Virus record (IMG/VR): IMGVR_UViG_3300022752_000037
Location: 1 to 64,000 of that record
Origin: a virus
DNA length: 64,000 bases
Direction: 5' to 3' (one strand)
Positions within the stretch are counted from its first letter, which is position 1, and each line of letters starts with the position of its first letter. The translations under genes were made by a program, and so were the position numbers. Below, in pieces: positions 1,004 through 6,054 of the stretch. The notes under the pieces were generated by a model that made no database searches, was not told the DNA's origin, and saw only the letters and a program-made list of their open reading frames with translations.

Positions 1004-1879
1004 ATGACCAAGGCATACAAAGTACTAAGCTTAGACACTGTAAAAGGCAGTGTGGCCACACTGGCACAAGATCCTGTGGTCAAAGACCTACGCAATGAGA
1101 CTGATGAGGACATACTGACTCGTCTGCGCGAACGCTTTGAAATCTTAGACGACATGACTCGTGCTGTAAAGAAAGGCGATGTAAGGGCTATGATTGTCAC
1201 TGGCCCTCCAGGTGTGGGCAAGAGCTACGGTGTGGAAAAGGTATTGAGCAAGCATGACGTTTTTGCCAATGTAGCACAAAATGAAAAGCTTAAGAAGTAT
1301 GAAGTAGTCAAAGGTGCTATGAGTGCTTTGGGTCTCTACTCCAAGCTCTATGAGTTCCGCGCCAAGAAGAACATTCTAGTGTTTGATGACTGCGACAGTG
1401 TGCTCTTAGATGATCTTAGCTTGAACATCTTAAAGGCAGCACTGGACACGTCAAAGAAAAGAACTATACATTGGAACACGGACAGTCGTCTGCTTAAGAA
1501 CGAAGGCGTGCCCAACAAGTTTGACTTTGAAGGTGGTGCAATTTTTATAACCAACATTAAGTTTGACAACGTTAGGTCTAAGAAGCTGCGTGATCACTTG
1601 GAAGCATTGGAGTCACGCTGCCACTACTTGGACTTGACCATTGACACAGAGCGTGAGAAGATGTTGCGTATTAGGCAGGTAGTGCAGGAGTGTGGCATGT
1701 TAGATAGCTATGAGTTTGATGATGTAGCCAAGGACACACTGTTGGACTTTGTAGATGACAACAAGAAGAAGCTGCGCGAGCTTAGTCTAAGGACTGTGCT
1801 TAAAATAGCAGACTTGAAACGTAGCATGCCTAGCAACTGGCGTGCTGTAGCAGAGGTTACGTGTATGCGCCGCTCCTAA
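1004..1879 (+). CDS. P-loop NTPase (AAA+-like)
   Basis: Walker A GPPGVGKS, Walker B ILVFDDCD, FITN sensor-like and SRC Arg-finger-like motifs; RBS GGAGCGAA. Confidence 0.8.
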   Translation: MTKAYKVLSLDTVKGSVATLAQDPVVKDLRNETDEDILTRLRERFEILDDMTRAVKKGDVRAMIVTGPPGVGKSYGVEKVLSKHDVFANVAQNEKLKKYEVVKGAMSALGLYSKLYEFRAKKNILVFDDCDSVLLDDLSLNILKAALDTSKKRTIHWNTDSRLLKNEGVPNKFDFEGGAIFITNIKFDNVRSKKLRDHLEALESRCHYLDLTIDTEREKMLRIRQVVQECGMLDSYEFDDVAKDTLLDFVDDNKKKLRELSLRTVLKIADLKRSMPSNWRAVAEVTCMRRS

Positions 1880-1897
1880 GGCACACAGACTAGATGC

Positions 1898-1990
1898 AGG
1901 CCGATTCGCTCCCGGCCGTGTATTTAGCAACCTCTGCATATAAAACATCGCAATGATGTTTTGGATCCTCGAGGCCGATTCGCTCCCGGC
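1898..1990 (+). repeat. 19-bp direct repeat AGGCCGATTCGCTCCCGGC (1898-1916 and 1972-1990)
   Basis: Exact duplication read directly from the sequence. Confidence 0.95.
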
Positions 1991-2009
1991 TGTCGAGGAT
2001 TTTTTTTTT
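1963..2009 (+). terminator. intrinsic terminator closing the early region
   Basis: Stem ATCCTCGA...TCGAGGAT followed by a T-run (2000-2009). Confidence 0.8.
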
Positions 2010-3208: not shown

Positions 3209-4603
3209 TTAGGTCATGTTGTTCAGTAGCTGTCTTAATTTTGTGCTTTCAACCTGCGCTGTGCTTCGCACAGTCGTGCCTTCTCTTGGGTCCACAGCAG
3301 CAGTTCTTTGTAGGTTGTTCAGTATGGAGCCAGCACGACTCTGTGTGTTCTCATCTGTCTGTGCATCTTCGCCTGGGTCTGTGATTCTCAATGTATCCAC
3401 GTTGAACTCAAGATCAATCTTCTGTCCCACACCGCTTGAACTACGTGTTTTCATCAGCTGTATTTGGTATCGTCCACGTTCACGCATAGCTCTTGATGTA
3501 AAGATGCCAAAAACGTTGTCCGCAGTCTGTATCTTGCTTAGTCCGCCACTGATATGGCTATGATCAAATTCCACTTCTTCCACTGCGCCGCGATTAAGCT
3601 GACTGGCCGTTACCAGTATGCAGTTCTTTTCCACAGCTAGGTTTCTAAGCTCTTCGCTCACATACTTGTCTTTAACAAACAAATTCTCCGCACTGATTCT
3701 CTTACTGATTGGCATCAATAAGTCCAAGTAGTCTACCAGTAGCACATCTACTCTGCGAGCTAGCTTGATTTCATATTCTTTTAGATAGCTGCGTATGTCA
3801 TTAGCAGTCTTACCCGATGGCATGTATTTGACCTGATAAGTTCCGGACTTCTTACCAATTACTCGTACACGCATTTCAACTTCGTCGATCTGTCGAAAAA
3901 TGTCTCTACTGGCTATTTCAGTAACCATACTGTCCACACGCATACTCACAAGTTCTTCGCTCAGTTCCAATGTAAGATAAACTACATTTAAACCTTGCAG
4001 TGCCCAGTTTACACCGAGATTGGCCAGGAACAAGCTCTTACCCGCACCCGATCCTCCTGCAAAGATGTTCAGTTCTCCCTTGTTCATACCTCCGAACAGT
4101 CTCTTGTCCACAGTAGTCCAGCCTGTGCTAATCTGTCCGTTTTTGTCTTTAATACGCAGTAGCCTAGCACGAGGGTCAGCAAAGTAGTCTGTGCCCATGT
4201 CTTTGGTCAGACCCACTTGTACAGCCTGCTTGACTAGATCTTCCACTGGACCATATTCTCCCTTTTCCAGTAGGTCTGCACTCTTTAGAATAGCACGTTC
4301 TAGACCTTTATGCCTAATGAATGTTTCAAAGTCCTGTAGCAGCCAATCATAGTGTTCTTCTCTCAGTTCGCCAGGGTTTGAAAATTTATTCACTGTGGCT
4401 GCATTAACGATGTCAAAGGTAGGTAGTATGTTATGTTCTACCACATAGTCGTTTATGAACCTAGCTGCTGATTGTAGTCGTCGATCAAACAGTTCCGGAT
4501 CAAAAATGCTTTGGCAGCGTACAAAAGTCTCTGCATCAGTCAGCATCATTTCGATGTATAATTTCTGTATGTCATAGCCGTAGTCTGCGTTTTGTTTTGT
4601 CAT
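3209..4603 (-). CDS. gp41: DnaB-like replicative helicase (T4 gp41-like)
   Basis: Walker A GGSGAGKS, YLTLEL, VDYLDL, TASQLNR and KTR SF4 helicase motifs. Confidence 0.92.
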   Translation of the reverse strand: MTKQNADYGYDIQKLYIEMMLTDAETFVRCQSIFDPELFDRRLQSAARFINDYVVEHNILPTFDIVNAATVNKFSNPGELREEHYDWLLQDFETFIRHKGLERAILKSADLLEKGEYGPVEDLVKQAVQVGLTKDMGTDYFADPRARLLRIKDKNGQISTGWTTVDKRLFGGMNKGELNIFAGGSGAGKSLFLANLGVNWALQGLNVVYLTLELSEELVSMRVDSMVTEIASRDIFRQIDEVEMRVRVIGKKSGTYQVKYMPSGKTANDIRSYLKEYEIKLARRVDVLLVDYLDLLMPISKRISAENLFVKDKYVSEELRNLAVEKNCILVTASQLNRGAVEEVEFDHSHISGGLSKIQTADNVFGIFTSRAMRERGRYQIQLMKTRSSSGVGQKIDLEFNVDTLRITDPGEDAQTDENTQSRAGSILNNLQRTAAVDPREGTTVRSTAQVESTKLRQLLNNMT

Positions 4604-6054
4604 GTAAAAACCTTTGTGTTGTATTGTTTTTCAAAGCGTCGAGCATCTAGCCTATCATTTACCATAGGTTCTCCTCGAATATTAAGACTAGTATTAAGTA
4701 ACATAGGGCACCCTGTAGTATCATGCCATAATTCCAATAATCGTCTTATACGACTGCCATCCTTGGGCACCGTTTGAACTCGACTAGTTCCGTCAGCATG
4801 GATTATAGCAGGAAACAGTTCGGGATGTCTACACTTACTGGTGAACTGCATATACCTATGATGCTCGGCTCGGCCTCTTATATCAAAATGTTCTTTGGCA
4901 TATTCTTCTAACACCACGGGAGCAAATGGCCTAAACTGTTGTCTTTGTTTTATACCATTAACACGATCTTTAACATCGGGACCTCTTGGGTCGGCCAGTA
5001 GGCTACGATTACCAAATGCTCTAGGTCCATATTCGGCTGCTCCTTGTGCCACTCCACAGATTCGGTGTTGTTGTAAGTATAGAACAATATCTTCAATGGT
5101 GTCTTGTGGTTCTATCGCATAGCCTAAAAACGGTGTAGTCCATGGTATATGCTCTTTGGTCACTGCTAAGACTGATCCTACTGCTGAACCAGCATCACCA
5201 GGGTTAGGCAAGATCCAAACATCGTCAAATAGGCCAAATGCTAGACTATTAGCTGAACAATTAAGGGCGCAGCCGCCCATTAATACAAGATTCGTGCTAT
5301 TAGTAAGATGTTTTCCTAAGTATAAAATATTTTTAAATAGCTCTTCGTAGACACGTTGAGTTCCTGCTGCTATGTCATAGATATCTGCAATACCTAATTC
5401 CGGTGCCCAATCCCTACATCCTCGATGTAAGTTCTGTCGAAAAGTAAAATTTTCAAAACTTTCCACAAAGTCTGATCCGATACGCGGTGCCAATTTTCGA
5501 GCTTGACCATAAGCAGCCATGCCCATTAAAATATATTCTTCTTCATTAGGTTTGAGTCCAATACGTTGCGTCATTGCACTATACCATAGACCTATACTAT
5601 GAGGATATCGTTGGCTGTAAAGTTTTTTAAGCATTCGGCCCTTGGCCTGCCAAATAGTTATAGTTTCAAATTCGCCAATAGCGTCTATGACAATCACACA
5701 GGCTTCTTCAAATTGACTGGTATAGTAACCAGCCGCAGCATGGCTATGATGATGGTAAACTGTTTGATAAGGGCAGGTAATATTATATCGTTTAAGATAA
5801 GGAGCTACTCTATTGTCTTTAAAACCCTGTCCTGCTTGGAATTGCCGTAGTGTTTTAATCCATGGACGTTCATACCAAATAACTTTATCTGGTTCTCCGA
5901 ATTGTTTGGCATGATTAACGAGATCTAAACATAGATCGGGGTCGTTTTTTACTCTACTGAATCTTTCACTGTGACTAGCAAAGACAAGATCATGTTCTTT
6001 AAAAACAGCCAGAGCAGCATCATGGCTGTTAGCACTTATGCCCCAAGTAATCAT
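4600..6054 (-). CDS. carbamoyltransferase (NodU/CmcH/TobZ family)
   Basis: HDAA, ERFSR, HHHSHAA, DAIGE, GGCALN, GPRAFGNRS, RPFAP, HADGTSRVQ and LNTSLN motifs. Confidence 0.92.
   Translation of the reverse strand: MITWGISANSHDAALAVFKEHDLVFASHSERFSRVKNDPDLCLDLVNHAKQFGEPDKVIWYERPWIKTLRQFQAGQGFKDNRVAPYLKRYNITCPYQTVYHHHSHAAAGYYTSQFEEACVIVIDAIGEFETITIWQAKGRMLKKLYSQRYPHSIGLWYSAMTQRIGLKPNEEEYILMGMAAYGQARKLAPRIGSDFVESFENFTFRQNLHRGCRDWAPELGIADIYDIAAGTQRVYEELFKNILYLGKHLTNSTNLVLMGGCALNCSANSLAFGLFDDVWILPNPGDAGSAVGSVLAVTKEHIPWTTPFLGYAIEPQDTIEDIVLYLQQHRICGVAQGAAEYGPRAFGNRSLLADPRGPDVKDRVNGIKQRQQFRPFAPVVLEEYAKEHFDIRGRAEHHRYMQFTSKCRHPELFPAIIHADGTSRVQTVPKDGSRIRRLLELWHDTTGCPMLLNTSLNIRGEPMVNDRLDARRFEKQYNTKVFT

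Follow-up and report, generated by a model that had tools for sequence, protein, structure and literature searches.

The first 64 kb of a 95,263-bp virus contig in IMG/VR (record IMGVR_UViG_3300022752_000037, positions 1 to 64,000; hereafter the window) opens with a block of plus-strand genes that ends in a pair of RNA hairpins. These hairpins, and the ribosome-binding sites (RBSs) of the genes that precede them, are the subject of this analysis. CheckV estimates the completeness of the contig at 27%, which implies a phage of roughly 350 kb; the source is an uncultured giant lake phage, and its relatives form a large family of uncultured aquatic phages of about 350 kb. Five plus-strand genes lie within positions 1–1879 (57–233, 315–485, 555–761, 758–970 and 1004–1879), and the minus strand holds nearly all genes from 2203 on, including those for a DnaB-like helicase and a carbamoyltransferase. 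The region 1880–2200 is therefore a convergent junction, closing a block transcribed by the host RNA polymerase, presumably the early block. The last gene of the block (1004–1879) encodes an AAA-ATPase homologous to the T4 nrdC.10 type, to which the hairpin module is linked in most relatives. Among cultured phages the nearest relative of this ATPase, at 49% identity, is gp126 of the jumbo Pseudomonas phage PA5oct. Megablast and blastn searches against cultured phages returned no close relative, only PA5oct-like phages sharing the ATPase, and the hairpin motif was not found in PA5oct.

Behind the ATPase gene, an exact 18-mer, GGCCGATTCGCUCCCGGC (also written GGCCGAUUCGCUCCCGGC), occurs twice, at 1899–1916 and 1973–1990, where no pair is expected by chance; there is no third copy within the window or the 95-kb contig. 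Each copy lies in a hairpin. Hairpin 1 (1890–1927, plus strand) begins 11 nucleotides (nt) past the ATPase stop codon and consists of a lower stem, CUAGAUGCA/UGUAUUUAG, with two G-U pairs, a bulged G on the 3' side, an upper stem GGCCG/CGGCC and an unpaired 9-nt loop, AUUCGCUCC, at 1904–1912. Hairpin 2 (1965–2000, same strand) has the stem AUCCUCGA/UCGAGGAU, the upper stem GGCCG/CGGCU, again a bulged G on the 3' side, and the same unpaired 9-nt loop at 1978–1986. It is followed directly by U9 (2001–2009), and so constitutes the predicted intrinsic (Rho-independent) terminator of the early unit; hairpin 1 has no U-run. A plain spacer hairpin lies between the two (1942–1962, plus strand; AAAACAUC/GAUGUUUU, loop GCAAU), and in relatives a plain hairpin of other sequence is found between or after the motif hairpins. 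Folding of 1855–2015 with RNAfold gives −56 kcal/mol on the plus strand (z = −3.8). An earlier reading of this DNA, made by a model from the letters alone (the original prediction), had described the two like hairpins, the spacer hairpin and the U-run as they are found here, and proposed that they form an anti-Shine-Dalgarno (anti-SD) small RNA (sRNA). It had also included a weaker third hairpin at 1861–1886; this stretch codes for the ATPase C-terminus, relatives lack its GCUCC, and it lies outside the element.

The U-run and the position directly behind plus-strand genes assign the module to the plus strand. With its U-run on that strand, 0–70 nt behind a stop codon and no room for a promoter, the module is an element of the 3' untranslated region (UTR); no promoter-like site was found at 1472–1890 on the plus strand. 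An onset just behind a coding gene, the absence of an own promoter and the use of the terminator of the mRNA are features of sRNAs derived from a 3'UTR, and the module shows them.

The loop is complementary to sites at which translation of the upstream genes would begin. The sequence GGAGCGAA, the exact complement of loop positions 2–9, joins the Shine-Dalgarno (SD) core GGAG to a 4-nt extension, and we call it the tag. On the plus strand it occurs at 747–754, serving a gene for a 70-amino-acid protein (758–970), and at 994–1001, serving the ATPase gene. The site GGAGCG at 545–550, before the gene 555–761, is partly tagged, being complementary to the loop over 6 nt, and the sites GGAGC(A) at 305–309 and 48–52, before the genes 315–485 and 57–233, match it over 5 nt only. 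All five early genes have GGAGC sites, exactly as had been claimed (GGAGCGAA from 747 and 994, GGAGCG from 545, GGAGCA from 48 and 305). At the 53 other candidate GGAG sites on the contig GGAGC is found six times and GGAGCG not at all (Fisher p = 1e-4 against the early sites). Predicted duplex energies are −12.6 to −13.9 kcal/mol for the loop with the tag and −5.8 to −7.6 kcal/mol for the 16S 3' end with the tagged sites; for the loop with GGAGA or GGAGG sites they are −6.0 to −6.7 kcal/mol.

Related loci were collected in four IMG/VR scans anchored on the ATPase, which has more than 545 relatives there; a quick ATPase tree was used descriptively only. The loop AUUCGCUCC is present in about 140 loci (ATPase 64–96% identical), with one to three hairpins in each and 168 different hairpin sequences; the only variants, all rare, are AAUCGCUCC, GUUCGCUCC and ACUCGCUCC, and loci with AAUCGCUCC loops contain no matching GGAGCGAU tags. 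In one set of loci (group 1) the hairpins stand directly behind the ATPase gene, with a U-run after the last motif hairpin in nearly all. In the other (group 2) one more gene intervenes, placing them about 800 nt downstream; they lack the U-run, and termination is therefore not their conserved role. The lower stems of relatives are unrelated in sequence, yet always paired: the mean hairpin energy is −14.1 kcal/mol for the real hairpins versus −6.2 when the 3' flanks are swapped between copies. Among 20 copies that align without gaps, two-sided changes occur in all seven lower-stem pairs and pairing is kept in 98% of the cells; co-variation scores 0.636, compared with 0.169 in shuffles and at most 0.145 in slid controls. 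The compensation that the original prediction had seen between the unrelated lower stems of the two window hairpins is thus borne out in relatives, and on this comparative evidence the module is a structured RNA under selection. A match to a known Rfam family had been named beforehand as an outcome that would speak against the idea; none was found, either for the whole window at the gathering score or for 1800–2250 at E ≤ 10.

Some loci depart from the common form. In L190 the terminator hairpin, the second after the ATPase, carries the loop variant CUAGGCUCC, and in L193 both hairpins have a shortened 7-nt loop, UCGCUCC; the RBSs of both loci show no clear matching change. In one sub-clade (L079, L191, L192, L194 and others) the start of the first anti-SD loop coincides with the ATPase stop codon (..GCUGAUUCGCUCCCAG..). 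This loop would be unfolded or occluded by a ribosome that terminates there, so its availability could be coupled to translation of the ATPase in these phages. Several searches and likenesses were set aside. A covariance model (R1) built from 20 type-1 hairpins proved too specific for the discovery of variants, recovering elsewhere only the bare loop, and was not used. A scan of viral contigs with the 14-mer CGATTCGCTCCCGG gave mostly single matches, many of them group 2 relatives, a count that is uninterpretable since chance matches are expected. A scan for twin loops (GTCGCTCC N18–48 GTCGCTCC) returned collagen-like coding repeats only. A YUNR (UUCG) U-turn is present in the loop of clade A, as the loci with loop AUUCGCUCC are called below, and absent from that of the sister clade B, and is not used as evidence.

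In these relatives the early RBSs are far more uniform than in the window, GGAGCGAA(A/C) predominating. The most frequent 8-mer at early RBSs is GGAGCGAA, which accounts for 110 of the 253 unique contexts of group 1 and for 45 of the 134 of group 2; the tags keep an SD-like spacing of 5–9 nt from the start codon, and the fully tagged share of GGAG sites is about 35–45%. In a relative of 356 kb (96% complete) the hairpin motif is confined to one place, the end of an early region that runs across the contig ends, and GGAGCGA is found at 9 of 19 sites in that region versus 6 of 92 elsewhere (p = 5e-5). The restriction of GGAGCG to early genes holds among the candidate sites on the contig of the window, where none of the 53 others has it, and is incomplete in this relative. 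A seeming second motif site at 278.9 kb of the same genome has no hairpin and is the RBS GGAGCGAAU read on the opposite strand. This RBS, outside the early region (L161:2395–2470, about 278.9 kb), serves a plus-strand gene for a 194-amino-acid protein. The gene, divergent from a phage cold-shock (CspA-like) gene, has a second GGGAGCGAAUCG in its leader, 40 nt upstream, and could be a further target of the loop. A likeness of GGAGCGAAC to 16S helix 24 (5' strand) of many phyla was dropped as coincidence, because clade B has a different tag.

Evidence that loop and RBS belong together also comes from this sister clade, which is well supported in the ATPase tree (L200, L216, L230, L238, L239 and L241, extended to 40 loci). 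Its hairpins occupy the same place behind the ATPase gene (in L238 about 50–110 nt past the stop codon), the last one with a U-run, and their loops read (G)UGCCCUC, AAUGCCCUC or AUUGCCCUCC. Its early genes have (A)GAGGGCA(A) before the start codon (tag form GAGGGCAA), with AGAGGGCAA alone in 62 unique contexts. In the 140 loci of clade A there are 412 GGAGCGA tags and one GAGGGCA tag, with 168 UCGCUCC loops and no UGCCCUC loop; in the 40 loci of clade B there are four GGAGCGA and 124 GAGGGCA tags, with no UCGCUCC loop and 38 UGCCCUC loops. Several positions are altered in both tag and loop, as base-pairing predicts. Co-variation of loop and RBS between phages was a check set before these loci were compared, and the tag counts of the two clades (412 versus 1, and 4 versus 124) bear it out.

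Neither tag is in use in clades that have no such hairpins (about 4 of 150 sites). No loops complementary to their local tags (GGAGAAACA, GGAGCAxxA) were found within the loci or in a 259-kb contig. That contig (G004, locus L227) has a uniform early leader, CAACGGAGAAACAAAAUG, nine times in 11 kb at 220–231 kb and once elsewhere in its 259 kb; one possibility is that the leader is maintained by a protein reader such as a RegB-like nuclease. The early unit of L227 ends in a plain GC hairpin followed by U8. A hairpin-less clade (L225:129, L233:314, L228:1154) has an unstructured (A/G)UUCGCUCC and then a conserved hairpin, CCUGGGGGUAGUGUCCCAGG, lying 3.5–4.7 kb upstream of the ATPase stop codon; these phages have no GGAGCGA tags.

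Taken together, the sequence comparisons strongly support the view that the loops are anti-SD elements matched to a private RBS of the early genes. Loop and tag very probably base-pair to control early protein synthesis, pairing in vivo being suggested by their concerted co-variation. To this extent the core of the original prediction, anti-SD loops matched to the early RBSs, is upheld (its third hairpin apart) by a loop that is invariant in about 140 loci, by the co-varying stems, by the tag and by the clade switch. That the module yields a discrete, processed sRNA of 120–150 nt, that it silences and that it acts as the early-to-late switch are more tentative parts of that prediction. The reading we favour, and hold with moderate confidence, is that the hairpins are a 3'UTR- or terminator-borne anti-SD module that shuts down tagged early genes by loop:tag pairing. 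By analogy, the module probably represses the tagged early sites, and it may act in trans and have a temporal role.

The promoters of the block suggest how this might work. Three sigma-70-type early promoters on the plus strand, each matching 11 of 12 positions, are found at 256–284 (TTGACA-17-TATTAT), at 496–524 (TTGACA-17-TATACT) and, ahead of the ATPase gene, at 948–976 (TTGACT-17-TATAAT). Promoters of this type speak against a host among the Bacteroidota. Early transcripts from many such promoters would co-terminate at the module, and each one reaching the terminator would carry it, so that the module would build up as early transcription proceeds, whether still on the mRNA or as a 3' fragment that is stable and nuclease-resistant. 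The loop AUUCGCUCC would then pair with GGAGCGAA, the SD core with its private 4-nt extension on many early genes. By occupying the tagged sites, the loops would out-compete the 16S anti-SD sequence and block binding of the 30S subunit. Translation of the tagged early genes would be shut down, and the GGAGA, GGAGG and GGAGU sites of later genes would be spared.

Several observations weigh against this reading. Silencing of the whole early regulon, as originally proposed, is too strong a claim: the 8-nt match to the loop is present at only two of the five early sites of the window, which belongs to a sub-clade with partial tagging, and across the family a full tag is missing from more than half of the early GGAG sites. 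One sub-clade (L193, L367 and L368) keeps UCGCUCC-type loops with almost no GGAGCGA tags. The counts in the two clades are phylogenetically non-independent and represent, in essence, one concerted switch of tag and loop together with some losses. In the hairpin-less clade of L227 an extended early RBS, CAACGGAGAAACAAA, is conserved and recurs nine times in the early region, with its complement absent from the entire 259-kb contig, so extended early tags can be maintained without a complementary loop. The G-U pairs favour the plus strand in the window, as had been predicted, but mean folding energies are equal on both strands across the family and do not distinguish them. Finally, a transcript has two or three loops for as many as about 20 tagged sites; to act in trans, the 3' fragment would therefore have to outlive the bodies of the mRNAs.

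Pairing could also be real and have another effect. The loops might protect early mRNAs from a RegB-like nuclease that cuts SD sequences, or from host RNases, or the 3' end might fold back in cis onto its own 5' sites, affecting stability or coupling. The same complementarity and co-variation speak for this as for repression, the ATPase is a gene of the T4 nrdC.10 type, module and targets are on one transcript, and the overlap of loop 1 with the ATPase stop codon in some relatives suggests coupling to translation. A match to RegB (PF10715) was not found in five partial contigs (G000–G004), in a search that was equally silent on the control genomes and is therefore uninformative. In all characterized anti-SD RNAs that we know of, an 8-base-pair duplex over the SD sequence blocks ribosomes, so protection would also come at a cost to translation. 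We regard such effects as unlikely, though worth keeping in view. Somewhat less likely still is that tag and loop make up a private, evolvable address code that also acts between phages, as an RNA-only superinfection exclusion: hairpin RNA already made by the resident infection would silence early genes bearing the same tag in a superinfecting relative, in the manner of the heteroimmunity of P1 and P7 set by c4. If it did so, the joint switch from GGAGCGAA/UUCGCUCC to GAGGGCA/UGCCCUC would have founded a specificity group that escapes.

Alternatively, tag and loop may be copies of one site in double-stranded DNA, GGAGCGAA/TTCGCTCC, for a phage DNA-binding regulator, for example a repressor that forms roadblocks downstream of every early promoter and at the unit's end, the clade switch then reflecting a changed protein specificity. 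Such a site reads alike in either orientation, so that the concerted change in clade B would be expected here too, and the tags do lie 20–40 base pairs downstream of sigma-70-type promoters. A duplex operator has no need, however, for its inverted copies to stand always in the apical loop of co-varying hairpins (all seven pairs; 168 and 38 hairpins in the two clades), and the last copy belongs to an intrinsic terminator. The tags hold the spacing of an SD sequence to the start codon and show no palindromic or dimeric arrangement. We consider this explanation very improbable. Least probable of all is that the hairpins are ordinary tandem terminators or RNA-stability elements with a loop bound by a phage or host protein: hairpin 2 with its U-run is a canonical intrinsic terminator, the nucleotides flanking the loop are also kept within hairpin types (CCAACG...CGGCAA and UAAGCCCG...CGGCA), and some sub-clades retain loops with few tags, but an incidental 8-nt match to RBSs is improbable and recurs with different letters in clade B, the group 2 hairpins have no U-run, and hairpin-less relatives close the early unit with a plain GC hairpin and U8.

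Two neighbouring features of the window may be noted. The interval 2010–2205, which separates the early terminator from the convergent gene's 3' end, holds a non-coding module kept in relatives, in which G-rich GGGGTCGGGG/GGTGGG repeats are followed by TATA(C/T)A in an AT-rich stretch, by ATAGGTGCAAAATCACCAC (about 2104–2125) and by a last block resembling TTTAAWTTTTTTRCGCGGCAATTTTTTT..CTGCAGGACCCATTTCGGGC (about 2140–2205), which is present twice in some relatives; its role may be that of a promoter specific to the phage, of an origin or of a regulatory site. On the minus strand, the carbamoyltransferase gene (4600–6054; Carbam_trans_N and Carbam_trans_C domains) adjoins the gene for the DnaB-like helicase, and its product could be an auxiliary or modification enzyme.

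The closest known architecture is that of the cuckoo or CcsR1-4 (alpha-r14) sRNAs of Alphaproteobacteria, and among phage RNAs that of c4 of P1 and P7. The cuckoo/CcsR RNAs have two to four adjacent hairpins with the loop motif CCUCCUCCC and variable stems, and arise by processing from the 3'UTR of an upstream DUF1127 (ccaF) gene with which they are co-transcribed (PMC4615179; PMC8034643). The phage module resembles these RNAs in its adjacent hairpins (two in the window, one to three in relatives), its identical C-rich, anti-SD-like loops, its free stems and its 3'UTR position. It differs from them in its loop, AUUCGCUCC or, in clade B, UGCCCUC; in its place, in a phage and behind an AAA-ATPase gene instead of in a bacterium behind a DUF1127 gene, and without an Rfam match; and in its targets, whose SD extension is private, specific to the clade and restricted to early genes of the phage itself.

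The c4 antisense RNA (RF01695) lies in the same transcription unit as its targets, has loops complementary to sites that include an RBS, and differs in specificity between P1 and P7 (PMC12197685). Like c4 and the CI RNA of P4, the module is encoded by a phage and has a loop complementary to RBSs (747–754 and 994–1001) upstream on the same strand. The c4 RNA is processed to a discrete molecule of about 77 nt that blocks translation. It belongs to temperate phages, lies upstream of the one operon that it targets (icd/ant) and serves immunity, whereas the present module stands at the 3' end, in large phages of virulent type, and is matched to many unrelated early genes. No match of the module to the c4 covariance model was obtained with cmscan, and there is no sequence similarity either. 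Since the module matches neither cuckoo/CcsR nor c4 in defining sequence and covariance model, it would represent a new family working like them; no description of the motif, or of phage anti-SD sRNAs of early genes, was found in the literature.

More distant parallels concern single aspects of the proposed mechanism. Firmicutes sRNAs with C-rich loops (RNAIII and the Rsa RNAs with UCCC loops in S. aureus, RoxS in B. subtilis) use UCCC or CUCC loops to pair with several mRNAs at their SD regions, blocking initiation. These address the generic SD sequence of host genes; the phage loop reads 4 nt past the SD core, which would make the extension a private address. The enterobacterial sRNAs CpxQ, DapZ, SroC and MicL derive from 3'UTRs, use the terminator of the parent mRNA without a promoter of their own, and act on host regulons through a single-stranded seed and Hfq; the module likewise has its terminator in common with the mRNA and no promoter of its own, and is unlike them in its tandem loops. 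In phage T4, early genes share the extended SD motif GGAGRAYARAA, which marks them for post-transcriptional shut-off by RegB with S1, and middle and late genes are spared (PMC3014915). An extended SD motif common to early genes is thus found in both cases, but RegB is a protein endonuclease that cuts the tag, and in the present phages the tag appears to be read by an RNA loop.

The module defines a new structured-RNA family, absent from Rfam, with an invariant loop and co-varying stems, and the tag offers a simple rule by which early genes could be called from the sequence of metagenomic phages. Should the pairing be real, this phage family marks its early genes with a private SD extension that is read by an RNA loop carried on the early transcripts themselves. 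It would then possess an RNA-only counterpart of the RegB shut-off of T4, and a natural orthogonal SD/anti-SD address with at least two specificities that arose by divergence.

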